From a virus, in IMG/VR virus record IMGVR_UViG_3300017714_002439: a DNA stretch of 64,000 nt. One strand, given 5' to 3'. The position numbers and the translations under genes were made by a program. The notes beneath the pieces were generated by a model that did no database searches, was not told the DNA's origin, and saw nothing but the letters and a program-made list of their open reading frames with translations. Of this stretch, positions 4,184-33,375 are shown piece by piece (the stretch's first letter is position 1; every line of letters begins with the position of its first letter).

Positions 4184-4184
4184 G

Positions 4185-4213: not shown

Positions 4214-4241
4214 AAAGACTATTAACCTATAGGAGACTCTG

Positions 4242-5868: not shown

Positions 5869-6314
5869 AAATTGAATATGATAAAAACTATGAGTTCAAC
5901 ACTAAAGTAACATTTGGAAATCTTCCTGCTTCAGTATGTGAAGAAGTTCTCAAAGATGGGCGTTTAGCAAGTCACTTTTTAGAACGTCAATTAGAAGTAT
6001 GGTTTCCAGACCTTACATTTGTAAATGCAAGGGGATATGATCATATTCGTAAAGGTTCTGATATTTTGTATGATCAAAAGTGTTTCACAAAAACATCAGG
6101 GTTAAAATTTGCTCCTAGTAAAATGTTAGGTGGTGGACGCAAGATAGATATTAAAGAAGCACATGCACATGCAAATACTATTGATTATATTGCATGTGAT
6201 ATTGTTGATTTTCCTAAGGTAGTTGTTCGCTTTGTAAAAGGAAGTAATCTAGTTAAAAAATACCCAAGTTGTCTAGTTAAAGTTAAGCAGCGAGCAGAAT
6301 TCTTCGATTATTAA
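5865..6314 (+). CDS. Hypothetical protein, possibly PD-(D/E)xK nuclease fold
   Basis: GYDH..ILYDQKCF motif; start at ATGA overlap 5865. Confidence 0.4.
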   Translation: MKIEYDKNYEFNTKVTFGNLPASVCEEVLKDGRLASHFLERQLEVWFPDLTFVNARGYDHIRKGSDILYDQKCFTKTSGLKFAPSKMLGGGRKIDIKEAHAHANTIDYIACDIVDFPKVVVRFVKGSNLVKKYPSCLVKVKQRAEFFDY

Positions 6315-6338
6315 CCAAAAAAAAATTAAAAAAGATAC

Positions 6339-6366
6339 AAAACCCTTGTTTTACAAGGGTTTTTTT
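6339..6366 (+). terminator. Intrinsic terminator
   Basis: AAAACCCTTGT-TTT-ACAAGGGTTTT plus T-run. Confidence 0.85.
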
Positions 6367-11575: not shown

Positions 11576-11594
11576 CTCTTTTGTTCAGTAGTCA

Positions 11595-11600
11595 TAAATA
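11595..11600 (+). promoter_or_regulatory. Late-promoter-like TAAATA motif heading the modular protein cluster
   Basis: CATAAATACT, upstream of GGAG SD and ORF 11630. Confidence 0.55.
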
Positions 11601-11629: not shown

Positions 11630-12664
11630 ATGAGATTACACAATTTATTTGAAAATACAACACCTGAATCCTTAATTGAAGATATTATTGATATTGAGCT
11701 TACTGATGATTTTGCAATAGAAGGCAGAATAGTAGAATTCAACGAAGATGGTAGTATTACAGTAGAATTAGATGAACAAGCACAAGAATTAGTAGATCTT
11801 GATGAAGAAGTTCTTAACGAATTTATACCATTAGCAATTGGTGCCGCGGCACTAGGTTTGACAGCCTATGATGCCTATAGAAATTACAAAGCATACAAGC
11901 GAGGTGATATCACTAAACAACAATTAGCAAAACGTGTAGGCGTTGATGCTGCAATTGGTATTACAACTGGTGGTATTGGTAAACTTGCAAGTAAGGCATA
12001 CAAAGCCGGTAAAGCCGGTGTTCAAGCATACAAGGCCAAAAAAGCGGCTAACGTAACTCCAAATAATGTAGCAAAAGTTGAACCATCTGCACTACCGGCA
12101 ACAGGCGCAGCGACAGGAAATGCAGCTGGAAAAACAACTGCAAAGAAAGCCGATGATGTTAAAGCCAAAAAGAAAGCTGCACGTAAAAAAGCAGGCAAAA
12201 GACTTCGTAGAGCAGGAATGGGTGCATATGGCAGTGTAGATTATGATGATCCATTACAAAGAGCAGTAAGCAACTTTTCTTTTGAATCAGAAGATGAATT
12301 TGAACCACACATGATGTATGATCCTGAAACAGGTGAAGGCAAAATGGCACATACAGAAGCTGATCATTTAAAAATGAAAGACATGGGTTGGACACACGAT
12401 AATCCAAAAACTAAAGAAATCGAAGAAGCAGAATACCAAGGACGTAAAGTTAAACTTGGTAAGCCCATGGCAGGTGATGTTAAGAAGTTTAAAGTATACG
12501 TCAAGAATCCAAAAGGTAATGTAGTCAAAGTTAACTTTGGACAAAAGGGTGTTAAGATTAAAAAGAACAATCCTGCAAGACGCAAAAGTTTCCGAGCAAG
12601 ACACAACTGTGATAATCCAGGTCCTAGACATAAGGCACGTTATTGGTCATGTAGGAAATGGTAA
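11630..12664 (+). CDS. Modular putative internal head protein
   Basis: N-terminal MRLHNLFE; Glu-delimited modules; basic Cys/His C-terminal module EAEYQGRKV..RYWSCRKW. Confidence 0.55.
   Translation: MRLHNLFENTTPESLIEDIIDIELTDDFAIEGRIVEFNEDGSITVELDEQAQELVDLDEEVLNEFIPLAIGAAALGLTAYDAYRNYKAYKRGDITKQQLAKRVGVDAAIGITTGGIGKLASKAYKAGKAGVQAYKAKKAANVTPNNVAKVEPSALPATGAATGNAAGKTTAKKADDVKAKKKAARKKAGKRLRRAGMGAYGSVDYDDPLQRAVSNFSFESEDEFEPHMMYDPETGEGKMAHTEADHLKMKDMGWTHDNPKTKEIEEAEYQGRKVKLGKPMAGDVKKFKVYVKNPKGNVVKVNFGQKGVKIKKNNPARRKSFRARHNCDNPGPRHKARYWSCRKW
12236..12262 (+). repeat. VDYDDPLQR module copy 1 (copy 2 at 18505-18531)
   Basis: Identical 9-aa motif; DNA gattatgatgatccattaca shared. Confidence 0.85.
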
Positions 12665-12665
12665 A

Positions 12666-13412
12666 ATGCGTGTCAATGAAATTGTAAGCAAAACATCTAT
12701 AGAATCTATATTTGAAGATTTAGATCCAAAGTCAGAAGTATATGTTGACATGGATGGAGTTCTTGCTGATTTCTTTGGCGTATGGAACCAAATGATGGGT
12801 GTTAAGCATTGGAAAGAAATCAAAGACACTGACGCTGCACTACAAAAAATCAAAGATACAAAAGACTTTTGGATTAACTTACCAATGACACGTAATGGTA
12901 AAAGTTTGCTAAATGCAATTAAAAGATTCAAAGGAAAATATAATATACTAAGTGCTCCCCTTCCAGGTGATCCTAATTCAGAACCACAAAAGCGTGAATG
13001 GATCCAAAAGCATTTAAGTATGTTCCCGCCATCAAAAATTATTATAGACCACGATAAGGCCGCATATGCCAAGCAAGCAGATGGAACTCCAAATGCATTA
13101 ATTGATGATTTTGGACAAAATATAAGCAAGTGGGAGAATGCAGGTGGTGTAGGAATACAACACAAAGATATACAAATTGGTAATACTATTTCAAGACTAG
13201 CAAAAGCATTAGATACTAAGGAAGACCCAGTAGAAGAAAACTTTGCTGATGGTAAGAAAAAAGGTAAAAGCAGACCAGGGCGTGTAAAACGTTCAGGTGC
13301 AAGTTGTAATGGTAGTGTAACAGAACTAAGAGCCAAAGCAAAAAAAGCCAGTGGAGAAAAAGCAAAAATGTATCACTGGTGTGCTAACATGAAATCAGGA
13401 AAAAAGAAATAA
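12666..13412 (+). CDS. HAD-family 5'(3')-deoxyribonucleotidase-like protein with N-terminal tag and basic Cys tail
   Basis: YVDMDGVLADF, ILSAP, K, LIDD HAD motifs; true start ATG 12666 (MRVNEIV). Confidence 0.8.
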   Translation: MRVNEIVSKTSIESIFEDLDPKSEVYVDMDGVLADFFGVWNQMMGVKHWKEIKDTDAALQKIKDTKDFWINLPMTRNGKSLLNAIKRFKGKYNILSAPLPGDPNSEPQKREWIQKHLSMFPPSKIIIDHDKAAYAKQADGTPNALIDDFGQNISKWENAGGVGIQHKDIQIGNTISRLAKALDTKEDPVEENFADGKKKGKSRPGRVKRSGASCNGSVTELRAKAKKASGEKAKMYHWCANMKSGKKK

Positions 13413-14188
13413 TGGATAAAGAATTCATATTAAAAAATATGCACGAAAGTCGTAAGGCTCAACGTAATTATTCAGATAAAAAAGTAGACCAAGAAACTGT
13501 TGATTTTTTAACAGAGATTGCCGTTAATGCTCCTAGTAAACAAAACGAAGTAGATTTTACTCTTGCTATTATTACAAATGAAGATATGCTTAAAGAACAT
13601 GAAGAAAGATTTACTTGGGGATATCACTGGAATACAACTAACAGTGCAATGCATAATACACAAGTTCACGCACCATTGATATTTGTATATGGTCAGACTT
13701 TACCAGAAGATATATATAAAGATATATGGGCAGCTGATGAAGATGGACCTGGTGTTAATGAAATGTTTGAAGAACAGTTCAGAGATACACAAAATTTATC
13801 AATGGGTATTAGTTCAGGGCAACTTGTTTTAGCGGCACATATGATGGGATTAAAAACTGGTTTCAGTCAAAATACAATGCACAACGGAGTAGATAGTTTT
13901 AGTTGGAAAGAATTTTTAGGTTATGATAGAAACGAGTTTTATAGTCCAAAAATAGTAGTAGGCGTTGGATATCCAGATGAAACTTTAAAGTGGCATCAAA
14001 CTAGAAACTTAGAATATGTTGTTGCACACCCAGATGAGAAAAACTTAGATACTAAGCCCTATTTAGAAATTTGCAGTGATGATATAAGACAATATCCTAA
14101 CGGTGATGTATATAGCTTTGGCCATAAGAGTTCAAAAAAAGATGGCACACCAAAACCCAAAGATGTTAAAGTAAAGAGGTTCTTTTAG
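13412..14188 (+). CDS. Nitroreductase-family protein
   Basis: SRKAQRNY, NAPSKQN, GISSGQLVLAAHMMGLKTG, VGVGYP motifs. Confidence 0.8.
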   Translation: MDKEFILKNMHESRKAQRNYSDKKVDQETVDFLTEIAVNAPSKQNEVDFTLAIITNEDMLKEHEERFTWGYHWNTTNSAMHNTQVHAPLIFVYGQTLPEDIYKDIWAADEDGPGVNEMFEEQFRDTQNLSMGISSGQLVLAAHMMGLKTGFSQNTMHNGVDSFSWKEFLGYDRNEFYSPKIVVGVGYPDETLKWHQTRNLEYVVAHPDEKNLDTKPYLEICSDDIRQYPNGDVYSFGHKSSKKDGTPKPKDVKVKRFF

Positions 14189-14189
14189 T

Positions 14190-15353
14190 ATGTCACATCC
14201 AACAGCATGTTCAAAAAGTTGGACAGACGTAAATATAAATTTCAAAAGAGGCAAAATGGGGCATTGCTGTAAAGCTGAATTGCATCCTTTCCCTAATGAA
14301 TATACAAAAGACTTTTTTACCAATAGTGAACTCATTCAAAAACGTAGACAAGACACTCTTAATGGTATTCAACATTCAGATTGTCAAACTTGTTGGGCTG
14401 ATGTTAACAATGGAATTACTTCGTTTAAGGATTTGATGAATGAATGGAATAATTTTGATCAGCCAATAGACAAGCCACACATTGAATACATTGAAGTAGA
14501 ATTAGATAATACATGCGATCTAAGTTGTTTATATTGTAATGCTGATCAAAGCAGTAAAATTGCACAAGAAGAAGGCATAATAGTTCCTGACATGACACGA
14601 CAAAAAGATATTGATATTTACAAAGAGTGGCTAAAAGATATAGTTAATAATTCTCCAAGAAATATAACTTTAGCCTTTATGGGTGGAGAACCTACAGCAA
14701 GTAAATTATTTTACGAACTGATTGAGTATATTGTAACATTAGATGCCAGTAAACTTACACTACAGGTAACAACAAATTGTAATACCAAAGATTTTCTATT
14801 TAATAAATTTTTAGATGCAATAGATAAAGTGGGCGGTGTAGAAATTAATATCAGTAATGAAAGTTTTAAAGAAGACAGTAAGCTAATTAGATATGGGTTA
14901 GATTGGGATAGATTTGAAAAAAATGTAAAGGCTTATGCATTACACAAAAAAGTAACCTTCATTAGTTTTGATACTACTATGAATATTCTTGCACTTCCTA
15001 CATATAGTAAATACATTCAATGGATTTTTGATACAATGTCAAAATATAATAAACCTTTTAGTATATCAGGCGATATGGTGGTTATTCCAAATGAGTTAGA
15101 TATAGCAATACTTCCAGCATCTTTTAAAACTTATATAGACCAGGCAATACAAATAGTTAACGAAAATCAATTACCTAATTGTATATCAAAAGATAAGATT
15201 TTATCATTTATGGAATCAGGAATAGATCGTGTTAGTTCTAATTATAAAGAAGATTATAAGAATATAGTTAGACAGTTCTTAGAACCAAAACAAAAATATA
15301 AAAATACAGATAAACTTATGAGGTTAATAGACCCACTAGGAGCAATACAATGA
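14190..15353 (+). CDS. Radical SAM protein with N-terminal Cys (twitch-like) domain
   Basis: CDLSCLYC, MGGEP; N-terminal C..GHCC..CQTC. Confidence 0.88.
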   Translation: MSHPTACSKSWTDVNINFKRGKMGHCCKAELHPFPNEYTKDFFTNSELIQKRRQDTLNGIQHSDCQTCWADVNNGITSFKDLMNEWNNFDQPIDKPHIEYIEVELDNTCDLSCLYCNADQSSKIAQEEGIIVPDMTRQKDIDIYKEWLKDIVNNSPRNITLAFMGGEPTASKLFYELIEYIVTLDASKLTLQVTTNCNTKDFLFNKFLDAIDKVGGVEINISNESFKEDSKLIRYGLDWDRFEKNVKAYALHKKVTFISFDTTMNILALPTYSKYIQWIFDTMSKYNKPFSISGDMVVIPNELDIAILPASFKTYIDQAIQIVNENQLPNCISKDKILSFMESGIDRVSSNYKEDYKNIVRQFLEPKQKYKNTDKLMRLIDPLGAIQ

Positions 15354-15577
15354 CACAAGACGACATTTACAGATTACAATATCTTGCAGGTATTATAGAC
15401 AAACAAGGCACCCGTGTAAGTGGCACAGATGAATCTAACATAAGTATTGTTGGTAGTGCTAAAGGTGAATACATGCGTAAGCATAATGTTAAGCCAGGCA
15501 CAGACGAATGGTTTAAACTATGGTTTAGCAGACCAAAACTAACTGGTGAAGACCCAACACCAAAGCAAGGCGGATAA
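15350..15577 (+). CDS. Small conserved-type phage protein of the late cluster
   Basis: RLQYLAGI and YMRKHNVKPGTDEWFKLWF. Confidence 0.6.
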   Translation: MTQDDIYRLQYLAGIIDKQGTRVSGTDESNISIVGSAKGEYMRKHNVKPGTDEWFKLWFSRPKLTGEDPTPKQGG

Positions 15578-15578
15578 C

Positions 15579-16727
15579 ATGTTAATTAATGAAGTAATTA
15601 TCTTGCAGGAAGAAACACTAGATATTAACTCTATTGTAACACCTGCGATCAAATACTTGGATAAAGTATTTAAAGATAATAACTTCGAAATACGTATTGT
15701 CGGCGGCGCAGTGCGTGACATTGCACTAAACAAAGCACCCAAGGATATTGACTTTGCCTCAGATGCAACACCAGATGAAATGATTGCTATGTTTGATAAA
15801 GAAGCAATCAAATACATTCCTACAGGTTTACAACACGGAACAATCACCGCAGTAGTAAACGGAGAAGATTTTGAAATTACAACACTAAGAGCAGACAAAG
15901 AAACAGACGGCAGACATGCTGAAGTTGAGTTTGTTCGTAGTTGGGAAGAGGATGCTAAACGCAGAGACTTAACATACAATGCCATGAGCATGGATATTGA
16001 TGGCGAGCTATACGATTACCACAATGGCATGGACGACTTACAAAACAAAGTAAGTAAATTTGTAGGCGATCCAGAACAAAGAATTACAGAAGATTATTTA
16101 CGTATACTACGTTACTTCCGTTTCCAGGGCAGGTTAGCAGAACCTACTTGGGATAAAGATACATTACAAGCAATTAAAATGCATGCCAAAGGACTATCCG
16201 GTATTAGTGCCGAGAGAATATGGGCAGAAATGAGCAAAGCACTTTCAGGACAAAATGTTGCAAGTATATTATCAACTATGCATAAAACAGGTGTAGCACA
16301 AGTAATAGGATTAAACGTAAACAATTTAGGTGCAATAAAAGATGGTGGCAACCCAATTATAGCACTAGCACAACTAGGCAACGATGTAGACATTGCAAAG
16401 CGTTGGAAAATGAAAAATACAGAAGCAGAGTTATTGGGCTTTTTAGTCAAGCACAAAAACGATACACTTGATCAAAAGAAAGTGGAAGATATGATTGCCG
16501 ATGGTGTTAAGCGTGAGCTTATTACAGCACTGGCATCAATGCAAAACAAAAACGTAAACATAGATGCAAAAGTTCCAGACTTTCCTGTAACAGGAGCAGA
16601 CTTAATTGCTAAAGGCATGAAACCAGGCCCAGACTTAGGTAAAAAATTAGCACAACTAAAGCAACAATGGAAGGCTGGTAATTTTAAAGCTAGTAAGGAA
16701 GATTTGCTAAATACTAGTAAGGAGTAA
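15579..16727 (+). CDS. cca: CCA-adding enzyme / tRNA nucleotidyltransferase (class II) with N-terminal tag
   Basis: VGGAVRD, KDIDF, TTLR, EDAKRRDLTYNAM, EDYLRILRYFRF, ERIWAEM; start ATG 15579 (MLINEV). Confidence 0.9.
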   Translation: MLINEVIILQEETLDINSIVTPAIKYLDKVFKDNNFEIRIVGGAVRDIALNKAPKDIDFASDATPDEMIAMFDKEAIKYIPTGLQHGTITAVVNGEDFEITTLRADKETDGRHAEVEFVRSWEEDAKRRDLTYNAMSMDIDGELYDYHNGMDDLQNKVSKFVGDPEQRITEDYLRILRYFRFQGRLAEPTWDKDTLQAIKMHAKGLSGISAERIWAEMSKALSGQNVASILSTMHKTGVAQVIGLNVNNLGAIKDGGNPIIALAQLGNDVDIAKRWKMKNTEAELLGFLVKHKNDTLDQKKVEDMIADGVKRELITALASMQNKNVNIDAKVPDFPVTGADLIAKGMKPGPDLGKKLAQLKQQWKAGNFKASKEDLLNTSKE

Positions 16728-16731
16728 CACA

Positions 16732-18573
16732 ATGAGAATTACCGAAGTAGACAACCCAGTAACACAGGCTGATATTGATCAGTTAGAAGTGTTTGCTGAC
16801 CGTTTGTTTGCTAAAGTAGGCATTGATGTAGAATTTACTCGACACTTTTTAGACAGAGTCAATGACGAACGTAATGTAAAACAAATTACAATGTCAGAGC
16901 TTACCCGACTATTCAAACAAGAATACAAACGTTGGGGCAAGCCAATTGCACAATTAGGCCCAGATGCAGAAGCAGTAATGAAAGATATGGCAACAGATAT
17001 TAACTTGCCATTTGCACTACGTTGGGACCACCAAAACAAAGAATTAGATCTAGTTGCTAAAACAGTAATGCGTAAACCAGATTTTAAAACATCTAATCCA
17101 GAATTTGCAGTAGAAGATATTAAACAAAGTGGTGCATTAAAAGTTGTTAACAATTTAGCAGCTCGTAGTGGAAATGAAGCATTTCCTATTAAATTTGATA
17201 GTGGTAAACTAATTTATGTGAAGCCAATTACTGCTCGCAAAATTTTAAGACTATTTGATATTGCTCCAAAAGATATGATAGATAAGTTTATGACTTATAT
17301 TAACACAGCAAATGGATTTAGAGAATTGGCTCATTATGCAAATAAGAGTGTAAAAGGAACTGTAAAAGAAGATCCAAATGAAGGCTTAAAATCTTTATTT
17401 AAACCTAATGCTTATGCGGCCGCGGCAGCTAGACTGCACAGTGTATTACAACGTAAGAAAAAAGAAAATGACGCAGAAGGCAAGCCATTTAGACATGCAC
17501 TAGGTTGGTATGCATCTAGAATCGCAAGTGGATATCAAGCACATATTGACACAAGAGAATTAGTAGCATACTATCAAGATAATTATGATGCAGTATTAAG
17601 TGAAAGTGATTTACCTTATATCTCTGAAGAAGCCGCACCTAAACTTGATTACGATCAATTAAAAATAAAAATTCCAGCTAATGATAATGTTAAACCAAAA
17701 ATGGGACAAGTTATTAGTTTAGATGATGCACGTGCTAAAGCACAAGCACAATTAAATAGTTTATCGCCTGCAGAGAAAAAAGCTGCAAACCAATTTATTA
17801 AAAAAAATCCTAGTTTATTAAAAAGACTTGCTAACGTAGGAGCAAGGTCAACAGCAAGACATGGAGTTGTTACATTAGGTAGTGTTGCAACAGGACCCAT
17901 GGCACCAGCTACTATTGTAGTATTAAATGTTGCATTATTAGGTTGGGATATAGCAGATATGGGAGTAGAAATTTGGAAATGGTCAAGAGGTGATAAAACT
18001 GTTGATGTAGAAATGCCAAGAGGCAATGTTGATGCAGAATGGGATCCTAACTTACAACTTGAAATACCAGAATATCCTACAACTTGGCCAATGGATAGAA
18101 CAGGACAAGTATTAAAAAAGAAGCAGGCAGAATGGGAAAAAGAATTTGGCAAAACACACAAACATGATGGAAAGCCTATTGAAATTCCAGCATTTAAACC
18201 ATTAGAAATTCCAACCACTTCACCAGCTCAACCAAAGAATCCAGAAAATCCGGATAATCCAGAGGTGCCGGACAGCAAACCATCTGATCAGCCAGATATT
18301 AAAATTCCACAGCCGCTTAAAGCACCTCAACAGGACATTCCATTTGTTCCACCAGCAAATGCAACTGACCAAGAAATAGCATTTAAAAAAGATGCATCTC
18401 CAGTAGCAACAACTGTAGGCGGAACTACACCACCGGGTAATGGTAATAGAAATAATAAGAATAAAAAGCGTAAAAAGAAAAAAGATTGGGGATCCGGAGG
18501 CGATGTTGATTATGATGATCCATTACAGCGTTGGCAGAAGAAATATGGAACATGGGAACCGAGATCCCGATGA
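16732..18573 (+). CDS. Modular protein with N-terminal RegB/RelE-like RNase-type domain
   Basis: MRITEV tag; FTRHFLDRVNDER...KTVMRK; Pro-rich and basic regions; ends with DYDDPLQR module. Confidence 0.5.
   Translation: MRITEVDNPVTQADIDQLEVFADRLFAKVGIDVEFTRHFLDRVNDERNVKQITMSELTRLFKQEYKRWGKPIAQLGPDAEAVMKDMATDINLPFALRWDHQNKELDLVAKTVMRKPDFKTSNPEFAVEDIKQSGALKVVNNLAARSGNEAFPIKFDSGKLIYVKPITARKILRLFDIAPKDMIDKFMTYINTANGFRELAHYANKSVKGTVKEDPNEGLKSLFKPNAYAAAAARLHSVLQRKKKENDAEGKPFRHALGWYASRIASGYQAHIDTRELVAYYQDNYDAVLSESDLPYISEEAAPKLDYDQLKIKIPANDNVKPKMGQVISLDDARAKAQAQLNSLSPAEKKAANQFIKKNPSLLKRLANVGARSTARHGVVTLGSVATGPMAPATIVVLNVALLGWDIADMGVEIWKWSRGDKTVDVEMPRGNVDAEWDPNLQLEIPEYPTTWPMDRTGQVLKKKQAEWEKEFGKTHKHDGKPIEIPAFKPLEIPTTSPAQPKNPENPDNPEVPDSKPSDQPDIKIPQPLKAPQQDIPFVPPANATDQEIAFKKDASPVATTVGGTTPPGNGNRNNKNKKRKKKKDWGSGGDVDYDDPLQRWQKKYGTWEPRSR
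18505..18531 (+). repeat. VDYDDPLQR module copy 2
   Basis: See 12236. Confidence 0.85.
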
Positions 18574-18761
18574 AAATAAAAGACATACTAAAGTTACCCA
18601 GTATTGAAATTGGAGATGAGATATTAGTAGGCAAATTTAAAAACCGTAAAGCAGTAGTTACAGGGTTTGCAACAGATGAGAATAATCAGCCTGTGTTAAA
18701 GACAACCAAAGGCGATCAAAAACTATTCAAGCCAAGAATAGTTAAATTAATGGATAAATAG
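18570..18761 (+). CDS. Small protein with MKIKDI tag
   Basis: ATGA-coupled start at 18570; beta-rich SH3/KOW-like spacing (tentative). Confidence 0.6.
   Translation: MKIKDILKLPSIEIGDEILVGKFKNRKAVVTGFATDENNQPVLKTTKGDQKLFKPRIVKLMDK
18755..18760 (+). promoter_or_regulatory. Late motif TAAATA, 5 nt before the ATG
   Basis: TAAATA-GTTGT-ATG. Confidence 0.55.
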
Positions 18762-18765
18762 TTGT

Positions 18766-19755
18766 ATGAAGATATATGATATAACAAATGAAAGCAGTGG
18801 TATTAAGAGAGTCAATACAGGTATTGACATGAAAGCGGCCTTGGCAGCACGGCAGGCACAAATATCTTCACCAGGAACTAATTCAACTATAAGCAGTAGA
18901 ACAAATAAGACAAGACATAGTAATACAGGCACAGGTACCACACATAAAACATTTCGTAAGTATACATCTCAGATGGGAGACCTAGGTGGATCGTCAGTAA
19001 GTAAAGTAAACAATATAAAAAAATCAGCAACTGGAGCCACAGGCACTAGCACAAAACGATATGTTAGACCAGGTGGAAGTGGAACACAAACAGTAACCGA
19101 TGTTGGCACTGGTAAAACAACTAGAACTGATTTCCAACTAAAAGGTCCACAAAGTTGGGCATACGATAAACCAAAACTAAATGCTTCTAAGAAAATAAAA
19201 GAAGATGGTGTAATTGTTCCAGGTGTTAACACTACAGTAGATGTTAAGCCAGGCGAAACAGAACGTCAAGCTGCAAAATTTGGCAACGGCAAAATTAAAC
19301 CACTAATGCCTAAACGAGGCAAGTCACAAACAATCAATACATTGTATAACATGGGATTAGCTGAGTCTAAAAAAGAAGAAAAGCCAGAAGATGTTGAAGG
19401 AATTGATCCTGCTACACAAATGGCAGTAAAAAAATTACAAGCAAAATATCCACATGCAGATAATGTAATGTCAGCAATGTTGGCAGCAACACAAGAAATA
19501 GACAAAATACAAGACAACGCTGATAGAAAATTATCTGATGCTGACAATAGACATAACCGTAAGTTTCAAGAACTTGAAAGTCAAATAAAAACTTTACATA
19601 ACCAACTTAGTGATAAACGTAGAGACGATCAAGATAGAAAGCAAGACGAACAAGATAGGAAACAAGTCGAGATGGATCAACTGCATAATCGTAAGTTTCA
19701 AGAACTTGAAAAGAAATTACTAGACCTTATTAAAAATAATAATCTCAAGGCATAA
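18766..19755 (+). CDS. Modular putative internal head protein with coiled-coil C-terminus
   Basis: MKIYDITNE tag; Ser/Thr/Gly-rich module; HNRKFQELE duplicated. Confidence 0.55.
   Translation: MKIYDITNESSGIKRVNTGIDMKAALAARQAQISSPGTNSTISSRTNKTRHSNTGTGTTHKTFRKYTSQMGDLGGSSVSKVNNIKKSATGATGTSTKRYVRPGGSGTQTVTDVGTGKTTRTDFQLKGPQSWAYDKPKLNASKKIKEDGVIVPGVNTTVDVKPGETERQAAKFGNGKIKPLMPKRGKSQTINTLYNMGLAESKKEEKPEDVEGIDPATQMAVKKLQAKYPHADNVMSAMLAATQEIDKIQDNADRKLSDADNRHNRKFQELESQIKTLHNQLSDKRRDDQDRKQDEQDRKQVEMDQLHNRKFQELEKKLLDLIKNNNLKA
19141..19179 (+). repeat. KGPQSWAYDKPKL module copy 1 (copy 2 at 25896-25934)
   Basis: Identical 13-aa peptide in two different ORFs. Confidence 0.9.
19552..19711 (+). repeat. 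28-bp direct repeat (19552-19579 and 19684-19711)
   Basis: cataa(c/t)cgtaagtttcaagaacttgaaa, one mismatch. Confidence 0.85.
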
Positions 19756-19759
19756 CACA

Positions 19760-20989
19760 ATGTCTAATGTAAAATCATCGGTAAGTCTAACCCCCGGTGA
19801 ACTATTAACAAATCAATATAATAAATCATTCTGCATTAAACCATTTACTGAAATATCTAATTCAGCAACAGGTTCTAGAATGCTATGTTGTCGTAGTGAG
19901 CATGTAATCGACAGACACGAAGTTAACAGTAGTATCACAGAAGATTTTTTTAATCACCCAAACATGAATGAAATAAGAAGAAAAATGCTTGCTGGTGAAG
20001 AAGTGGAACAATGCTGGATATGTAGCGAGTCAGAAAAAGCAAGAGGAACATCACATAGAACATTTGTAATGAAGCAATTCGAAAGGTTAGTTCCTGGATT
20101 AGCTGATGATATATTTAAAAATGGAACTGTAGATCTAAAATCACTTGATATACGTTTTGGAACCAAATGTAACCTAGCATGTGTAATGTGTGGTCCTGGT
20201 AGCAGTAGTTTAATTGCAAAAGAAGAACAAGACAAAGATTTTGAAGTAGTAGACTTAAATGATTTTTCATTAGATGCTATTAAAAAACATTCAGAAGGTA
20301 TTGTGTTATTTAAAACAACTGGCGGCGAGCCTATGTTATTACCTGCATATAAGAAAACACTTGAGTTCTTTGTAGAAAAAGGATACGCAAAGAATATAGA
20401 GTTCACAACTATTACAAACGGCACAATTGATTACAGCGACATGATGCCACTAATGAACGAGTTCAAACATTTTAAAATTAGCCATAGTATAGATGCTGCT
20501 GATGAATCATATAATTATGTTAGATGGCCAGGAACAATAAAAAGATTACAACGTATACATAAAAGTATATCAAAAAATGCTAAACAATATAAAAATATAC
20601 AACTTCAATTTGGAGCAACTATACATGTATTAAATGTGCATCAAACAGTAAAGATTGCCAAGTATTTAGAAGAACTAGGAGAGTATGATAATTATAATGC
20701 AGACATGGTTTATAAACCTTATTATATGCAACCTGGACTGGTACCAAAAGAAGTAATTGACGAGTTAGAGATAGAAGCAATAGAGTGGGCAAGTAATGAT
20801 GATAGTCATAAAGAAATACTTGACTTTGTTAACACTTTACGGTATAATCATAATGCAATAAATAGTAGTATAGAGAAAAAGCAAGAACTACTCAATCAAT
20901 TAGAAGCCAAAACAATATTTTGGAAAGAAAAAAGAAAACTTGATGTTCGAGATTATGTTCCGTATTACGAGGTAATGCAATCAAAATGA
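19760..20989 (+). CDS. Radical SAM protein with N-terminal twitch-like domain
   Basis: CNLACVMC, TGGEP; N-terminal FCIKPF..LCC..CWIC. Confidence 0.88.
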   Translation: MSNVKSSVSLTPGELLTNQYNKSFCIKPFTEISNSATGSRMLCCRSEHVIDRHEVNSSITEDFFNHPNMNEIRRKMLAGEEVEQCWICSESEKARGTSHRTFVMKQFERLVPGLADDIFKNGTVDLKSLDIRFGTKCNLACVMCGPGSSSLIAKEEQDKDFEVVDLNDFSLDAIKKHSEGIVLFKTTGGEPMLLPAYKKTLEFFVEKGYAKNIEFTTITNGTIDYSDMMPLMNEFKHFKISHSIDAADESYNYVRWPGTIKRLQRIHKSISKNAKQYKNIQLQFGATIHVLNVHQTVKIAKYLEELGEYDNYNADMVYKPYYMQPGLVPKEVIDELEIEAIEWASNDDSHKEILDFVNTLRYNHNAINSSIEKKQELLNQLEAKTIFWKEKRKLDVRDYVPYYEVMQSK

Positions 20990-21402
20990 AAATACAATTA
21001 AAAAGATTAACCACTAAAGATTTATATAAATTAAGAAGTATAATTGATGAAGAAACTGCTAAATTGGCACAAATTGAATGGCCATTTGAAAGGCATATAG
21101 CAATGCAATTTATTAATGACTATAACACATGGGGAATATGGATTAATCACGATTCATTAGTAGGCGCAGTAGAAGTAAAAGAAGATTTAGAAACAGCATA
21201 CTTTATTAAAAAAGGCTGGCGTAATAATGGAATAGGCACAAAAGCAATTGAACTATGCATAGAAGAATTTGGTGATCAACAACTATGGTGTGTTATTGAT
21301 CCAGATAATAAAGCAAGTCTACGAGTAGCCCAAAAGGGTGGACTAAGAGTCAAGTTTATTGACACTGATAATAACAACGACATAATTACTGTAGTAAAAT
21401 AG
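20986..21402 (+). CDS. GNAT/RimJ-like acetyltransferase
   Basis: WRNNGIGTKA acetyl-CoA motif; DNKASLRVAQKGG. Confidence 0.8.
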   Translation: MKIQLKRLTTKDLYKLRSIIDEETAKLAQIEWPFERHIAMQFINDYNTWGIWINHDSLVGAVEVKEDLETAYFIKKGWRNNGIGTKAIELCIEEFGDQQLWCVIDPDNKASLRVAQKGGLRVKFIDTDNNNDIITVVK

Positions 21403-21410
21403 AGAATGAT

Positions 21411-21644
21411 ATGTCTAATAAAAAGATTACTCGCGAAGATTTAACAGCTACAGAAGGTCCTATGAACAATGTTGCTAATGAAGATGCATTGGTTTATGCT
21501 AAAGCAGACCCAAATAGGCCACTTGATATACACAAAGAACGTCAAGTTAGAGCTAAAAAACAAAAAATAAAGAAAAGTAGTAAGAAAGCAGACCGTAGAA
21601 TCAATAAAAGTTTAATTAAAAATATTAATGAACTTCAAAAATAA
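21411..21644 (+). CDS. Small basic hypothetical protein
   Basis: 77 aa, Lys/Arg-rich C-terminus. Confidence 0.55.
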   Translation: MSNKKITREDLTATEGPMNNVANEDALVYAKADPNRPLDIHKERQVRAKKQKIKKSSKKADRRINKSLIKNINELQK

Positions 21645-21665
21645 CAGCAAAACAAATCAAATAGA

Positions 21666-21671
21666 TAAATA
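21666..21671 (+). promoter_or_regulatory. Late motif TAAATA, 5 nt before the ATG
   Basis: TAAATA-CTAGT-ATG. Confidence 0.55.
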
Positions 21672-21676
21672 CTAGT

Positions 21677-21871
21677 ATGAAAATATATGATATCATAAAG
21701 GAAGAAGCAGACGCAGGTTCTACAATGGCAGGTAATGTTGCTAGTGTAAGTTTTCCATTATTTGGAAAAAAGAAGATGATCAGGCGTGCTGTTGATCCAA
21801 AAGGATATTTGGGTGACGGTAAGATTAAAAAGCAATCTACTGGATATAATACGGAGGTTAAGTTAAAATGA
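21677..21871 (+). CDS. Small tagged protein
   Basis: MKIYDIIKEE N-terminus. Confidence 0.6.
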   Translation: MKIYDIIKEEADAGSTMAGNVASVSFPLFGKKKMIRRAVDPKGYLGDGKIKKQSTGYNTEVKLK

Positions 21872-22167
21872 AGATTAACGAAATCCACGAATCAATATAC
21901 AGTATGAATCCTGAAGAACCTATGAATCCTGAAGTATTAATACAAGGTTATGGTAGATTAAATTTAAAACAGTTAGAAGATAAAGTAGGCAAAATGTTCG
22001 ATGAACTTGCCGAAAGAGCTAGACAGGGAGATTGGGAAGGTGTGCAATACAACCTAAACAAAGGACTTGTTCAAGAATTTATTAAAACCATCAATGTAGC
22101 ATATGATGAGTTAGAACAAAAACGAAGACGCGGCGGCAAGAGTAGTCGTGGCATTGAAAAGAGGTAA
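21868..22167 (+). CDS. Small tagged protein
   Basis: MKINEIHE N-terminus. Confidence 0.6.
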   Translation: MKINEIHESIYSMNPEEPMNPEVLIQGYGRLNLKQLEDKVGKMFDELAERARQGDWEGVQYNLNKGLVQEFIKTINVAYDELEQKRRRGGKSSRGIEKR

Positions 22168-22172
22168 CGACT

Positions 22173-23531
22173 ATGAGCAAAGAGCAAAAAATCGACAATA
22201 CTTTTAACAGAGTAATGGACGATATAAACAGACTACAAAAGGCATTTCAGCCAGGCAAGAATTTAGAAAAGGCTATCGCAGAGGTAGGCGGAGATATTTC
22301 TTGGTTAAAAGAGATTAACGAATCATTTGATAAACTATACGATATGCTTGAAGAAGGGCATATGGGTGCAGTAGCACATTTACAAATGGACGAAGAATTA
22401 AGTAAGAAGAAAAAAATTAAACCAAACACACCAGTTGGTATGGTAGCAGAAGGCGTATTAGACAGTGATGATGATGACGGGTTTATGGCTCGTAGTCAAC
22501 TATACTTCTTAGCCAGAGATGCAATTAAATTGCACAGCGTTATAGATGACAGAGATGACTTGGAACCGTGGGTTGGAAGTAAGATTGCTCAAGCTAGTAA
22601 GGATATGGATTCAGTTCGTCGTTACACTGAATACAATGCCATGAAAGCTGAAGTCGAGCCAGAAGGACAACCAGATGCAGAATTAATGGCTGGTGCATAT
22701 GAATCACTAGAAGAAGATCCAGAGCCACGTAAAATGCAAGTAACTAATGCAGATAAAAATGCAAACACAGAAGCATGGAAACGTTTTAAAGCAGGCGATC
22801 CTAGATATGAATACAAAGAACCAGTAAAAGAAGATCCAAGCAAGCCAAAATTTCCACAAGGCGTTCCATTAGCAGGTGATAGTATTTGGTTAAACAGAGA
22901 TGAAATGCAATATGATGACAATGTTGTAACAGTAACTGATCTCAAAACATCTGAAGAAGATGGTATGATTGAAGTATGGGTATACCATACTGCTCCTTGG
23001 GAAATTTATACAGACTCAGGTTTTGCTAAAGCAATTAGTGATATGCTGGGTATTGAAGTTGACTGGAGTGAACAAGGCATGCAAGCACAAGGTGTAGCAC
23101 ACTTAGAAGGTGAACTTGGGTTAGATGAAGCTATTCGTCCAGTAAGAAGTGCAGCTTCTAAACTAAACCAAATTGGACAAGGCGTTCGTAATAAAACAAA
23201 TGACGAAACACCAGCAAGTGTTGGCGAAGGCAAATACGGTAAGAAGAAAAAGAAATACGAAGCTGTAAAAGAAGAAGTAGTTAAGATAAGAGCAGTAAAA
23301 GATAAAGAACATTTAAAATTACCTACTACTGGCATCAATAGAAAATTTGATGGACCAGATGCAAAAGAGCATGCCGCTACAGCAAAGAAACAATTTGAAA
23401 AAGATGGTTATCATGTTGTTTACGAAGAGACAAAGTTTGATGATAAGCCGGAACACAGTGAATTAAAAACAGTTGCACAGGACATGTTTAAGCATGCACT
23501 AGCACAAGCTAAGAAAAAAGCAAGGAAGTAA
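22173..23531 (+). CDS. Modular acidic putative head protein
   Basis: Many [ILVM]xE junctions; GFMARSQLY..LEPWV module. Confidence 0.55.
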   Translation: MSKEQKIDNTFNRVMDDINRLQKAFQPGKNLEKAIAEVGGDISWLKEINESFDKLYDMLEEGHMGAVAHLQMDEELSKKKKIKPNTPVGMVAEGVLDSDDDDGFMARSQLYFLARDAIKLHSVIDDRDDLEPWVGSKIAQASKDMDSVRRYTEYNAMKAEVEPEGQPDAELMAGAYESLEEDPEPRKMQVTNADKNANTEAWKRFKAGDPRYEYKEPVKEDPSKPKFPQGVPLAGDSIWLNRDEMQYDDNVVTVTDLKTSEEDGMIEVWVYHTAPWEIYTDSGFAKAISDMLGIEVDWSEQGMQAQGVAHLEGELGLDEAIRPVRSAASKLNQIGQGVRNKTNDETPASVGEGKYGKKKKKYEAVKEEVVKIRAVKDKEHLKLPTTGINRKFDGPDAKEHAATAKKQFEKDGYHVVYEETKFDDKPEHSELKTVAQDMFKHALAQAKKKARK

Positions 23532-23533
23532 CT

Positions 23534-24235
23534 ATGGCAATAGACCAGTCTTTAGTAATGACTTTTCCAAATAGTCAAGGTGATGTAGAAATCTACATGC
23601 CTGAAAATACTAGAGTATTGGTAAAATGTAGTGGTGGAGCAGATTCGAGTATACTTTTGTATATGTTAGCAAAATACAGACATGAGTATAATCCTACTGT
23701 TAGTTTTATAATTGCTACTTCAGTTAATCAGCAATTGCCATATCAATATATACATGCTAAAAAAGTAGCTGACTATGTTAACGAAATATACCCAATGGGT
23801 GACTACGAACATCATCAAAATGAGAATAGAGGTGGAGAATTTTATCCAAGCGATCAAGATTTTCTTACAGAACCATTAATGAAAAAGTCAGATAAACTAT
23901 ATATGGGTTTAACACTTAATCCACCCATTGAAGAAATGAAAGCACATAACATGTATGATGATTTAAGAATGGAAGACCGAGACCCAGACAGTGAAAACAT
24001 TTGGGAAGTAGGTGAAAATGAATTATCAGAAAACAACTGGAGACATAACCGTCCTTTTGTAAGACATGACAAGCGTGGAATTGCAGAGTTTTATGATTTG
24101 CTAGGAGTAAGAGATACATTATATCCATTAACTAGAAGTTGCGAAGAAAAAACTACAGACTTTTCTAAACATTGCGGAACATGTTGGTTTTGTTTAGAAC
24201 GTGAATGGGGTTTTGGGGAATTAGAAGGAAAATAA
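23534..24235 (+). CDS. QueC-like PP-loop ATPase
   Basis: SGGADS and TRSC..HCGTCWFCLER Zn motif. Confidence 0.72.
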   Translation: MAIDQSLVMTFPNSQGDVEIYMPENTRVLVKCSGGADSSILLYMLAKYRHEYNPTVSFIIATSVNQQLPYQYIHAKKVADYVNEIYPMGDYEHHQNENRGGEFYPSDQDFLTEPLMKKSDKLYMGLTLNPPIEEMKAHNMYDDLRMEDRDPDSENIWEVGENELSENNWRHNRPFVRHDKRGIAEFYDLLGVRDTLYPLTRSCEEKTTDFSKHCGTCWFCLEREWGFGELEGK

Positions 24236-24236
24236 A

Positions 24237-26015
24237 ATGAAAGCTAAACAATTAAACGAATTTAACAAAGTAGATTGGGAAGAAAACGAATCAGTGAATC
24301 TTCACAGTGAAAATGCATTAGAGCTTGCTAAAGAATTTGGAACCCCAGAAGAAGTAGAAGCAATGCAAAGAATTATGGATCAGCACATGCGTAGAGGACA
24401 CATTCTACCACATGAAATTGAAGAGCGTAATGCATTAACATCAAAATATTACAGCATGTTAGAGCATTCAGTTAACCCAACGTTTAGATCAACATTAGAA
24501 GGCTACAAAGTTATGCCTACAATGGATCCTAAGTATATAGCACGTGATGGACTGGAAGGTCCATTTAGCACATTAAGTGGTAAGGTTGTTTATTATGATC
24601 CTAAAGAAGGTTCATACTACGATCCAGACACAGACATGTATATGTCATATGATGAATTTCAAAAGTATGATAACGATTACAGTGATATGAAAGAAGAATC
24701 AGACCAAGGCTTTAGTGGAAAAGAGAGAAACTTTATACATGACTTGTGCATGATGCACGATGGTGTTAAAAGAGATCCAGCAGGATTAAAATATCTTGGA
24801 ACATCTGAAACATGGGATGAAGGTAATTGTTTAAGTGACAAAGGTAAATTAACTACTCTAATGCTTTGGGCTAACAAAAACAAAGACGCTGTTGAAAAAC
24901 GTTTTTCACGTATGTTTAATAACTATAGCAACAAAGATGAAAATGGAAAAGTAACAGCATCAGATGGTAATCAACTGCTTAATGACATTACTAGTAAGAT
25001 TGGTAGCATTGGTGAACAAACTGTAAAAGGCCCAAGAGGACATTTACGTTCTATTGTTGCTGACGACCTTAACGAAATAGATTGTTGGGATGGTTACAAA
25101 AAAGACGGAACTAAGCCTGGCACAGGTAAAAACAAAGGCAAGCGTGTAAACAATTGCGTTAAAGAAGAAGATGTTACAGTAGATAATGCAGGTAACATCG
25201 CAGGCTACTTAGCTACAATAGATGAGTATGTAGAAATGTTAGCAGATGCCAATTCTCACTATGATAGAGATGAAGCAATGGATTCACATACAGTTAAAGA
25301 AATAGCATATAGAATTCAAAACGCTGTAGACGACATTAGAATGAGAGAACTTGGATTAAAGCCAAGCAATATTAGATCTAAATTTAATGAAGACGAAGTA
25401 AATGAAGAACACGATATAGGTTTACTTAAAGCAGTTGCAAGACAAATGGAAGCAGATGCACACAAAGGTGACTATACTGCTATAGAAGAATTATTACAAA
25501 ATATCTCAACAGAAGAATTAAAAGCATTCCTTTCTGATCACAGAGATATAGATTTTAGTGAAGAAGAATTGAATGAACTTGGATTTTCTGCACCAGTTGG
25601 AGCTGCTGGCAAGACCAGTGGATATGCTCCTCCATCTACACACACTATATCAAGTAGATCAAGTTTATCTGCTAAACAAAAAAGAGATGGTAGTCAATCA
25701 GAAATCTTTACACAGTATGCTGATGATTTTCAACACGATGGTGCCGACAGAGGAAGAAGCACTATGTCAGATGTATCAATACAAAAATATGATGCAGATG
25801 GAAAGATGACTAAAAATGATTCATACAACAGATTTGTAATGCCAGGCGGTGCGGGTATTGATACAACAAATGGTGTAACAAAAAATATACAAATGAAAGG
25901 TCCACAAAGCTGGGCATATGATAAACCAAAATTACCAAGAATAAAAAGAGAAGGCAAATACGTTAGCGATGCACAACGCAAAGCGGTTCATGCCTCAAAA
26001 GCGGAGAAAAAATAA
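24237..26015 (+). CDS. Modular putative internal head protein
   Basis: MKAKQLNE tag; modules such as CWDGYKK..NNCVKE, YYDPKEGSYYDP, KGPQSWAYDKPKL. Confidence 0.55.
   Translation: MKAKQLNEFNKVDWEENESVNLHSENALELAKEFGTPEEVEAMQRIMDQHMRRGHILPHEIEERNALTSKYYSMLEHSVNPTFRSTLEGYKVMPTMDPKYIARDGLEGPFSTLSGKVVYYDPKEGSYYDPDTDMYMSYDEFQKYDNDYSDMKEESDQGFSGKERNFIHDLCMMHDGVKRDPAGLKYLGTSETWDEGNCLSDKGKLTTLMLWANKNKDAVEKRFSRMFNNYSNKDENGKVTASDGNQLLNDITSKIGSIGEQTVKGPRGHLRSIVADDLNEIDCWDGYKKDGTKPGTGKNKGKRVNNCVKEEDVTVDNAGNIAGYLATIDEYVEMLADANSHYDRDEAMDSHTVKEIAYRIQNAVDDIRMRELGLKPSNIRSKFNEDEVNEEHDIGLLKAVARQMEADAHKGDYTAIEELLQNISTEELKAFLSDHRDIDFSEEELNELGFSAPVGAAGKTSGYAPPSTHTISSRSSLSAKQKRDGSQSEIFTQYADDFQHDGADRGRSTMSDVSIQKYDADGKMTKNDSYNRFVMPGGAGIDTTNGVTKNIQMKGPQSWAYDKPKLPRIKREGKYVSDAQRKAVHASKAEKK
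25896..25934 (+). repeat. KGPQSWAYDKPKL module copy 2
   Basis: See 19141. Confidence 0.9.
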
Positions 26016-26293
26016 TGGGTATATTAAGCGATACAGTAAACGAATCTAAGAAAAATTGTGGATGTGGCAAAGACCCATGTGAAACATACGGTAAGAAAAC
26101 AGACGAATCATATTCTCCAGGTGATGAAATGGAAGATGGCATGGTAAGTAATTGCTGTGGCGCTCCAATCATGGACGTTTATGACGGACACGGTAGATGT
26201 AGTGATTGTAAAGAAATGGCAAGTGCTGAAAAAGAAGAAGCATACTATGAAACTGCCGAAATACAAAGATTAAAAGATCTAATTAGGTATTAA
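26015..26293 (+). CDS. Small Cys-rich protein with two Zn-finger-like modules
   Basis: CGCGKDPC and CCG..CSDC; EIQRLKDL tail. Confidence 0.6.
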   Translation: MGILSDTVNESKKNCGCGKDPCETYGKKTDESYSPGDEMEDGMVSNCCGAPIMDVYDGHGRCSDCKEMASAEKEEAYYETAEIQRLKDLIRY

Positions 26294-26304
26294 GGAATAA
26301 CAAG

Positions 26305-27339
26305 ATGAGATTACACCATTTATTTGAAGACGAGAATGTCAAAAAAGAAATCATTGCAAAAGTAAGTGGACTAGTTGCTGACAATGAAGAAGATGCAAAA
26401 CTGTTAGATAAAATATACAGAACTTTGCACAATACAGACATTTCAGGTAAGGTTGCACAAGCATTTGCAGTTCCTACTTCAGATGATAATATTAATCTTG
26501 AACCATTACTTAAACAACTAACACAAATTATTTTCCACGCAGGTGTTGATTATAAAAGCCTTGACGCATTCCTTAACAGATTAGCAAAAGGTAACGTTGT
26601 AGACGTGCCTGTTCTTACTACTCCTGGAGTAGGAAGTGTAAGAGCGTTCTTTGGCGGTGATGAAACTACTACAAAAATATTTCAAGCAATGGCAACACTA
26701 GGCGCAGGTAAAAAGCAAAAAGGCCCAGGTGAATATGCACTTGCAATGTTATCAAATCAAATTAAATTAAAACATGATGGTGGCGATCTTGATGTTGCAG
26801 GCAAAGGTATAGAAGTAAAAGCAGAAACTACAACAGGTGGTGGACGTCTTGGAGAAGGTGGACCTACTAACGCAGTTGCAAAAGAATATTGGAGCCAAGT
26901 TCCAAGTATAGCAAATCACTTTAATCAAGGTTCAAAAGGACTTGGTATTAAAAACTTTGTTCAAGCATTAGCATTAGACTTACCGTTAAATGATCCAGAA
27001 AAGAAAAAACAAAGACAAGATTTACTTACAAAATGGTATAGTCAGTTGTTTCCAAATGCAGCACCATTTGTTCAAGCATTTATGCAAGACGATGGAGTAG
27101 TTGCAGAAAAAATGTATGGTAAAGCAAACTTTGAATCTTACAAAAACAACTATGGATGGGACGGATTATTAAGTATTAACTTCCCTTCACTAAAATACGT
27201 AATGGTCAACACAGGTGATGACTTTGTTAGAATGAAAGAAGCAGGACATTTTGGTAGCTTCTCAATTAGTGTTGTGCCAAGCAGTGCAAGACCATCAGAA
27301 GTATATTGTCAATTAAGTTTAACTAAAGCAAAAGCATAA
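26305..27339 (+). CDS. PD-(D/E)xK nuclease-like protein with N-terminal tag
   Basis: MRLHHLFE tag; GPGEYAL...GDLDVAGKGIEVKA motif. Confidence 0.55.
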   Translation: MRLHHLFEDENVKKEIIAKVSGLVADNEEDAKLLDKIYRTLHNTDISGKVAQAFAVPTSDDNINLEPLLKQLTQIIFHAGVDYKSLDAFLNRLAKGNVVDVPVLTTPGVGSVRAFFGGDETTTKIFQAMATLGAGKKQKGPGEYALAMLSNQIKLKHDGGDLDVAGKGIEVKAETTTGGGRLGEGGPTNAVAKEYWSQVPSIANHFNQGSKGLGIKNFVQALALDLPLNDPEKKKQRQDLLTKWYSQLFPNAAPFVQAFMQDDGVVAEKMYGKANFESYKNNYGWDGLLSINFPSLKYVMVNTGDDFVRMKEAGHFGSFSISVVPSSARPSEVYCQLSLTKAKA

Positions 27340-28549: not shown

Positions 28550-28804
28550 ATGACAACATTTTCTGAAGCAGACGTAAATAAATTGAAGCATCTTATTAAA
28601 GAAGGTATTCAAGTAACACAAGAAGTAGAAACCTTGCGAGAAGGACTTCGCGATACTGTAAAAGCAATTGCAGAAGAAATGGATATTAAACCATCTATTC
28701 TTAATAAAGCAGTGCGTGTAGCATATAAGGCAGAATTTGCCAAAACACGTGATGAGTTCGATGAACTTGAAACAATTCTAACAACAGTAGGCCGCGATAG
28801 TTAA
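28550..28804 (+). CDS. Small dsDNA-binding protein (T4 DsbA/GapR-like)
   Basis: 84 aa helical; LRDTVKAIAEEMDIKPSILNKAV pattern; directly upstream of the polymerase. Confidence 0.55.
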   Translation: MTTFSEADVNKLKHLIKEGIQVTQEVETLREGLRDTVKAIAEEMDIKPSILNKAVRVAYKAEFAKTRDEFDELETILTTVGRDS

Positions 28805-33367: not shown

Positions 33368-33370
33368 ATA
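33365..33370 (+). promoter_or_regulatory. Late motif TAAATA, 5 nt before the ATG
   Basis: TAAATA-CTATT-ATG. Confidence 0.5.
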
Positions 33371-33375
33371 CTATT

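Follow-up and report, generated by a model that had tools for sequence, protein, structure and literature searches.

A T4-like N-terminal leader on ten clustered genes marks a putative cargo locus of an uncultured marine jumbo phage

The subject of this analysis is a block of genes at positions 11630-27339 of a 64,000-nt stretch of viral DNA (IMG/VR record IMGVR_UViG_3300017714_002439; the whole stretch is referred to as the window), in which proteins of different kinds begin with a similar short leader. The window contains 90 called genes, all on the plus strand, and has a GC content of ~35%. A sequence-only reading of this DNA had proposed that at least 11 proteins of the block share an N-terminal tag of the kind known as the capsid-targeting sequence (CTS) of phage T4. 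All the open reading frames and N-termini quoted there were found in place, and the tag was recognized on ten genes. The eleventh candidate, 26015 (MGILSD...), does not match the motif and was left uncounted. The ten tagged genes, named below by their start positions, are as follows (G and L numbers here and below are our labels for related contigs and loci).

11630..12664, plus strand, tagged protein of 344 aa; leader of 8 aa ending in L-F-E
12666..13412, plus strand, tagged 5'(3')-deoxyribonucleotidase (NT5C/HAD), 248 aa; Pfam NT5C from aa 25
15579..16727, plus strand, tagged CCA-adding enzyme/tRNA nucleotidyltransferase, 382 aa; Pfam PolyA_pol (1.7e-34), phrog_2244
16732..18573, plus strand, tagged protein of 613 aa; leader MRITE, then domain X at aa 10-128 (nt 16759-17115), which ends in FAVE128
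18570..18761, plus strand, tagged basic protein of 63 aa, pI 9.9; leader retained in the orthologs of six relatives
18766..19755, plus strand, tagged basic protein of 329 aa; leader ends at E9
21677..21871, plus strand, tagged basic protein of 64 aa, pI 9.7; leader ends in I-K-E-E; resembles T4 internal proteins
21868..22167, plus strand, tagged protein of 99 aa; two leader sites, I-N-E5 and I-H-E8
24237..26015, plus strand, tagged multi-module protein of 592 aa; leader ends in L-N-E8
26305..27339, plus strand, tagged protein of 344 aa; leader ends in L-F-E8, almost the same as that of 11630; orthologs in G003 and L001

The looser form of the leader, M-[KR/L]-[ILVA]-x-[DENQH]-[ILVF], usually with Glu at residue 5, 8 or 9, is present in 10 of the 20 genes of the block and in none of the window's other 70 genes (Fisher p = 3e-8). 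Seven block genes (12666, 16732, 18570, 18766, 21677, 21868 and 26305) carry the strict core, M-[KR]-[ILV]-x-[DEH]-[ILV], again versus 0/70 (p = 1e-5), and the looser form brings in 11630, 15579 and 24237. Both p values are optimistic, because the bounds of the block were set after the fact. The consensus originally written for the tag strictly fits six genes, or seven if its trailing Glu is dropped; the others require the looser form. Of 529 internal Met residues, one begins the core. The leader-bearing proteins are mutually unrelated: they include a 5'-nucleotidase (NT5C), a CCA-adding enzyme, a possible RelE/RegB-like domain and several proteins without families, and the 11630 and 26305 proteins, identical at 7/9 N-terminal residues, have no other similarity. 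A pI above 9 is found in 7/10 tagged proteins. Judged by its sequence, the leader is a real, portable, clustered, conserved and CTS-like element. Its build would comprise a basic residue and hydrophobic residues spaced i, i+3, i+4 as if along a helix, followed by an acidic residue and, at the end, Glu.

Mullaney and Black are said to have described in 1996 the T4 CTS on IPI, IPII and IPIII, all internal proteins. In the T4 genome (NC_000866) the leaders read MKTYQEFIAE (IPII and IPIII), MKTFKEF...ITE (IPI), MAKINELLRE (gp24) and MELITELFDE (Alt). MRAQEFITE, a leader variant often met in the wider protein library, comes close to the IPII/IPIII leader with one residue removed, and the suggested likeness to the T4 CTS is borne out, in a comparison made by eye with no scored alignment; the elements in common are Q-E-F-I-x-E and K-I-N-E-[IL]. 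T4 CTSs are propeptides of 10-20 residues that gp21 removes after Glu, and the T4 internal proteins form a variable set with only the CTS in common (PMC9026906, PMC3012670, PMC5694885).

Relatives were collected as 42 IMG/VR loci by a search with the 16732 protein, and three related contigs were fetched; lengths reach 316 kb. Nearly all homologs of the 16732 protein begin with such a leader, including much longer proteins in which domain X is internal. Across 40 loci we counted 125 distinct N-termini with the tag; the proteins range from 50 to 2509 aa. Contig G003 (221 kb, 266 genes) has 11 tagged genes in 17 kb, and in G001 (127 kb; query protein 92% identical) ten are packed into the first 15 kb; G004 (316 kb, 91% complete) has fewer. 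Peptidase_S77, the family of T4 gp21, is encoded in G003 (L064:12867-13505), G004 and G005 (PF03420, 88-97 bits), and G003 also codes for the gp20 portal (PF07230) and the gp23 capsid protein (PF07068). A small protein encoded between portal and protease, at the position of T4 gene 67, is tagged in both G003 and G004.

The 21677 protein, once its leader is passed, shares a segment with the gp23-type capsid proteins of G003 and G004; in these it comes just past an L-S-E or L-A-E, which is likely the capsid maturation site. The segment common to both reads G-S/T-T-M-A-G-N-V-A-S ... I-R-R (L064:14624-14893; L053:3487-3756). Most related loci encode homologs 50-68 aa long, and the protein may be a mimic of the N-terminal arm of the capsid protein.

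The leaders commonly end in a hydrophobic-x-Glu site, counted in 9/10 leaders of the window. In 69 of the 125 leaders an [ILVMF]-x-E closes between residues 7 and 14, most often at 8 or 9; the share among other N-termini is 18%. The 18766 leader ends in T-N-E (I-x-E in orthologs), and this protein has no hydrophobic-x-Glu site before residue 146. The same motif recurs within proteins. BLAST among all called proteins revealed heavy shuffling of modules between genes and phages, and the 24237, 18766, 12666 and 11630 proteins of the window are assemblies of such modules. The nucleotidase stands alone in the window; relatives have it fused behind the CCA-adding enzyme or another tagged protein. 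Two modules that are internal here, CWDGY (24237) and GVNTT (18766), come right after the leader in some phages. Whether a module is standalone and tagged or internal, hydrophobic-x-Glu stands in front of it. Counted in unique contexts, the motif precedes the basic tail of 12666 in 8/8, GVNTT in 9/11, CWDGY in 4/5, GPCD in 3/3, ERPYIC in 4/4 and AEYQG in 7/8. Overall, 88/111 junction windows carry it versus a background of 26%; in a stricter test, with the leader outside the alignment, the figures are 15/36 versus 10%.

The basic tail provided a replicate. We searched its 57 aa against 1.84 billion representatives and obtained 1252 proteins at E <= 0.001, all from metagenomes, in which the tail is almost always C-terminal and the host proteins are of very different length. 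The best 150 of the 1252 hits yielded 128 distinct upstream contexts. Glu occupies P1 in 128/128, and P3 is hydrophobic in 102/128 (80%; V 55, L 19, I 18, M 9, F 1), with Ala in a further 8; P2 and P4 are variable. In this independent set, 84 of 138 Met-started tail hits carry the leader, and 75 of these 84 have the site at residues 8-11. Since the tail comes right after the leader in several proteins, one and the same boundary serves as leader end and as internal junction. The tail itself, which contains Cys, is 84-98% identical across at least 150 protein clusters that differ elsewhere, a conservation unusually strong for a small appended module.

The proposal that the larger proteins are strings of modules joined at [ILVM]-x-E sites is partly supported by these comparisons: boundaries carry [VLIMF]-x-E, and this motif lends comparative support to the processing of multi-module cargo. 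The individual junctions that had been put forward fared differently. EIEE|A, PVEE|N, KIKE|D and DLNE|I coincide with module starts that have the same motif in independent contexts of other phages, VLNE|F was seen only in an ortholog, and IKRE|G does not fit the motif.

It might be argued that the shared N-termini and junction residues are mere remnants of cassette shuffling, that is, of recombination at conserved 5' ends and of gene fusion and fission, with no role in targeting or cleavage. Mobile regulatory cassettes do occur in plastic regions of T4-type genomes, the modules have been extensively exchanged between genes and phages, and codons 1-8 of the tagged genes show 47% nucleotide identity versus 32% for other genes. 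However, the same residue classes in the leaders come from different codons, and unrelated upstream contexts of the tail converge on hydrophobic-x-Glu. We regard an origin by shuffling alone as decidedly unlikely, also in view of the motif frequencies that follow.

For the frequency test, proteins were grouped by greedy clustering (50 tagged proteins, 24.7 kaa), as single-linkage clustering lumped the multi-module proteins and left too little sequence. Relative to shuffle expectation, [IL]-x-E occurs at 0.87 in tagged and 1.24 in untagged proteins, a deficit with z = -4.4. The controls are similar in tagged and untagged proteins (reverse motif, 1.26 versus 1.20; [IL]-x-D, 1.12 versus 1.17). 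A depletion that spares the reverse motif speaks against shuffling remnants. In the proteins at the scaffold position, [IL]-x-E reaches 2.1x (G003) and 3.1x (G004) the shuffle expectation, and [AGS]-x-E shows no enrichment in these proteins; the relatives' protease therefore probably retains a T4-like specificity. The T4 proteins degraded by gp21 (gp22, gp67, gp68 and gp21 itself) have [IL]-x-E at 2.4x expectation, whereas mature residents of the T4 head are at 1.03, and the three internal proteins have no site. Putative cut-site motifs are concentrated at module boundaries and avoided within modules, unlike in the shredded T4 core proteins. The suggestion that the cargo is cut into many peptides calls for refinement in this respect. 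Depletion had also been considered as a refutation of polyproteins as such, a view overturned by the junction analysis.

With moderate confidence, we take the block 11630-27339 of this uncultured marine jumbo phage, assigned here to the T4 superfamily, to be a CTS-type cargo locus whose products we infer to be loaded into the prohead, cleaved and ejected. The leader would dock a protein on the scaffolding core of the prohead, and a prohead protease of the gp21 family would then cut the leader off after [VLIM]-x-E. Acting on the same motif at module boundaries, the protease would free small basic peptides and enzymes inside the head, and this cargo would exit with the DNA at infection.

A different reading accepts the leader and the boundary motif as real signals and assigns them to a cytoplasmic protease, of the phage or of the host, the products acting unpackaged in the late-infected cell. 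It gains from the fact that the presence of the tagged proteins in virions is a prediction, that several of them are ordinary enzymes able to act in the cell, and that the same block holds untagged metabolic genes. Against this, the prohead protease is the sole one with Glu specificity found in the relatives, the leader looks like the CTS established experimentally in T4 and is present at the gene 67 position, the 21677 protein copies the context of the capsid maturation site, and many of the modules predicted to be released are small and basic, like the T4 internal proteins. Cytoplasmic processing appears to us rather unlikely.

Several observations nevertheless weigh against a packaged cargo. 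The untagged genes interspersed among the tagged ones (radical SAM, nitroreductase, GNAT and QueC-like) indicate that the block is not purely cargo. All the relatives are metagenomic contigs, and the protease and head genes are known from these contigs, with no head genes found within the 64-kb window. The 18570 protein has a leader and yet no [ILVMF]-x-E site, some junctions have T, A or Y at P3, and retention of the junction motif could come partly from shared ancestry of the fused genes. In the window alone, [IL]-x-E stands at 1.00 in tagged versus 1.21 in untagged proteins with the reverse motif equally low, in a test that is underpowered at this size. Finally, the domain X homolog of cultured phage phiM12 is without a leader and is not annotated as a virion protein.

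The tagged proteins differ in what follows the leader. In the 11630 protein an acidic segment comes first, and VLNE64 then leads into a hydrophobic hairpin; this is followed by a basic stretch and by a basic module at the C-terminus, which begins after EIEE266 (nt 12428). This module, matched by phrog_7595 over aa 262-344, has [ILVMF]-x-E in front in 7/8 independent contexts. The hairpin, the basic stretch and the peptide VDYDDPLQR recur together in the 11630 (11819-11880, 12236-12262) and 16732 (18505-18531) proteins, and VDYDDPLQR is confined to these two among all loci examined. The nucleotidase 12666 has a leader of ~17 aa ending in I-F-E, followed by the catalytic DMDGV motif; its basic tail (nt 13239-13409) begins after PVEE191. 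Where relatives have the nucleotidase fused behind other tagged proteins, L-F-E is retained at the junction. In 15579 the leader, MLINE..LQE, is followed by the catalytic head domain from aa 38, and the enzyme sits inside tagged multi-enzyme proteins of four relatives (L030, L025, L021 and L006).

Domain X of the 16732 protein is common to the 42 related loci at 70-86% identity, with variable C-termini; here the variable C-terminal part includes a hydrophobic segment and the VDYDDPLQR end. In an alignment of 20 homologs its invariant residues include H38, R42, E34 and R47. The structure model has a pLDDT of 64, and Foldseek of this model against the PDB returned nothing at E <= 0.001. The top rows of VIA-align were RelE (Z 5.8; 77 aa, rmsd 3.1) and T4 RegB (Z 5.5; 119 aa, rmsd 4.9), both below the reliable level of the tool. 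Domain X is also present in the cultured phages Melnitz, phiM12 and its relatives, and in Flavobacterium phage immuto. Methylophilales phage Melnitz (L083), a cultured marine T4-like phage, has leader-like N-termini at 1984-2496, 4013-4408 and 5914-6363 (MKSIVEV..., MKNFKNHIAEE and a TTG-started KTFLQFE), the proteins being nucleotidase-like, one without assignment and a domain X homolog. Melnitz could be used as an experimental model.

In the 18766 protein the junction KIKE146 (nt 19201-19203) lies immediately before the GVNTT module, and tblastn of this protein against cultured phages gave no match. The 21868 module is found inside larger tagged proteins of relatives and is fused to the 21677 homolog in G003; by eye, [ILV]-x-E stands in front of it in about 16/18 contexts. 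The 24237 protein has an internal junction at DLNE280 (nt 25074-25076), before the CWDGY module, and a candidate junction at ELNE447 (nt 25575-25577). In standalone genes of relatives CWDGY follows immediately behind the leader MKINE, and tblastn of the whole protein against cultured phages found only a 40-aa module match in KVP40-like phages. For 26305, tblastn against cultured phages produced no match, and the protein atlas gave weak leads only, to restriction-endonuclease-like families (score 0.80).

Tagged proteins of relatives join further enzymes. One consists of HD_4, domain X and PolyA_pol (L030), another of domain X and an AAA_33/Zeta-toxin-like kinase (L029), and a third of the CCA-adding enzyme and NT5C (L006); the HD and kinase modules occur only in the tagged proteins of the related contigs. 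Pfam returned nothing useful on two giant tagged proteins of relatives, and no peptidase families in the tagged proteins scanned. Plausible roles of the cargo would be tRNA 3'-end repair, nucleotide dephosphorylation, RNA cleavage and neutralization of DNA charge. The combination of HD, domain X, CCA-adding enzyme, nucleotidase and P-loop kinase would fit RNA-end repair or host takeover. More generally, and with confidence somewhat short of even, we put forward the tentative idea that a widespread lineage of uncultured marine jumbo phages has made the T4 leader and prohead protease a general plug-and-play loading system. Its motif-bounded cassettes would be split or fused (polyproteins of up to 2500 aa), freed in the head and injected as a kit of tRNA 3'-end repair, nucleotide phosphatase/kinase, RNase and small basic DNA-associated peptides.

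The proposed locus can be compared with known systems. It resembles T4 CTS cargo in the short N-terminal leader ending in [IL]-x-E on unrelated proteins, in belonging to a phage family with a gp21-type prohead protease (seen in relatives) and late-promoter-like motifs of the T4 type, in having several small basic cargo proteins, and in a cargo set that varies between related phages. Unlike in T4, where four tagged genes are scattered, ten or more lie in one block, a set known here from sequence alone. The cargo includes a CCA-adding enzyme and a nucleotidase, and the proteins of relatives reach 2509 aa. Moreover, unlike in T4 cargo as described, cut-site motifs lie at internal module boundaries, which implies polyprotein processing. 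In phages phiKZ, 201phi2-1 and SPN3US, ejection or inner-body proteins are processed by a gp21-related protease (PMC5694885, PMC10052503). Similarities to this group are the jumbo phage itself, the many head-loaded proteins and the Glu cuts at a short motif, several per protein, the last two as predicted here. In the phiKZ group the motif is S/A/G-x-E and propeptides often exceed 100 aa; here P3 is V/L/I/M and leaders have 5-17 aa. The polyvalent proteins of phages and conjugative elements, as presented by Iyer et al. 2017 (cited in PMC7824862), are long strings of mutually unrelated effector domains, presumed to reach the host together with the DNA. Several unrelated domains are likewise present in single tagged polypeptides of the relatives. 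Two features differ: in place of an embedded processing peptidase, none of which was found in the Pfam-scanned tagged proteins, there is a prohead-protease motif at the boundaries, and the same modules also occur as separate tagged genes. The Dar system of phage P1 (DarA, Hdf and DarB) loads anti-defence cargo into the head in an ordered manner, with some N-terminal processing (PMC9024508, PMC12810830). It differs in phage lineage and proteins, and it is without a short leader common to all cargo.

The TAAATA motifs that had been noticed before three of the tagged genes are indeed there, in the form of the T4-type late-promoter-like heptamer ATAAATA.

11594..11600, plus strand, ATAAATA, 29 nt upstream of 11630
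18754-18760, ATAAATA, 5 nt upstream of 18766
21665-21671, ATAAATA, 5 nt upstream of 21677

The window has 14 copies of ATAAATA versus 43 +/- 6.6 expected, a threefold depletion, and the coding strand bears 13 of the 14. The motif also precedes the portal gene of G003. It is these late-promoter-like motifs before three operon starts that are suggestive of late expression of the block. At 18754-18768, 21665-21679 and 33364-33378, 5 nt lie between the motif and the ATG and a Shine-Dalgarno sequence is absent, which suggests leaderless or nearly leaderless late mRNAs. The N-terminal pattern could then act on late, partly leaderless transcripts, in the initiation of translation or in mRNA stability, through an A/T-rich start and Lys/Arg as the second codon, its likeness to the CTS being coincidental. 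Two tagged genes with this spacing and the common AAA/AGA second codons would be accounted for in this way. Most tagged genes, however, have ordinary Shine-Dalgarno sequences, and 33376 has the same promoter spacing and no leader. Furthermore, it is the amino acids that show the pattern, which reaches as far as Glu at residue 8-9, and the boundary motif recurs far from any start codon. We consider a purely translational role extremely unlikely.

If the block is a cargo locus, the consequences reach beyond this phage. Injected proteins act before phage gene expression, which makes them prime candidates for first-strike anti-defence functions. T4 cargo amounts to four proteins; the leader and boundary rule predicts ten or more cargo genes per genome here, and exact mature N-termini as well. 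The lineage is known only from ocean metagenomes, and one cargo module alone is present in at least 1252 distinct protein clusters. The rule would make the injected proteome of uncultured phages readable from sequence and testable by metaproteomics. It suggests that RNA repair enzymes may be delivered pre-made, and the leaders could extend T4 protein-packaging technology to other hosts.

As to the phage itself, its DNA polymerase gene (28804-31497) is nearest to those of the T4-like jumbo phages Phosso, Atu_ph07, Vibrio 2.275.O, XbC2, GAP32 and RaK2 (42-50% identity), which groups this phage, as far as the polymerase tells, with the Atu_ph07/RaK2 T4-like jumbo phages. No match to cultured phages came from megablast of the block. 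Genes for a clamp loader, a thymidylate synthase and a DHFR-like protein are also present in the window. A sigma-70 promoter scan of the block returned 87 sites versus 75 +/- 8 in shuffles, not above expectation. Near-consensus sigma-70-type promoters (11/12 matches) occur at 20820-20848 and 21359-21386, upstream of the untagged GNAT gene and of 21411, and there are hints that the untagged genes of the block may follow a different expression schedule. Two radical SAM genes, 14190-15353 (387 aa) and 41607-42767 (386 aa), have nearly identical N-terminal regions and are therefore paralogs, with 27 kb between them; another radical SAM gene, the third, is located at 19760-20989.

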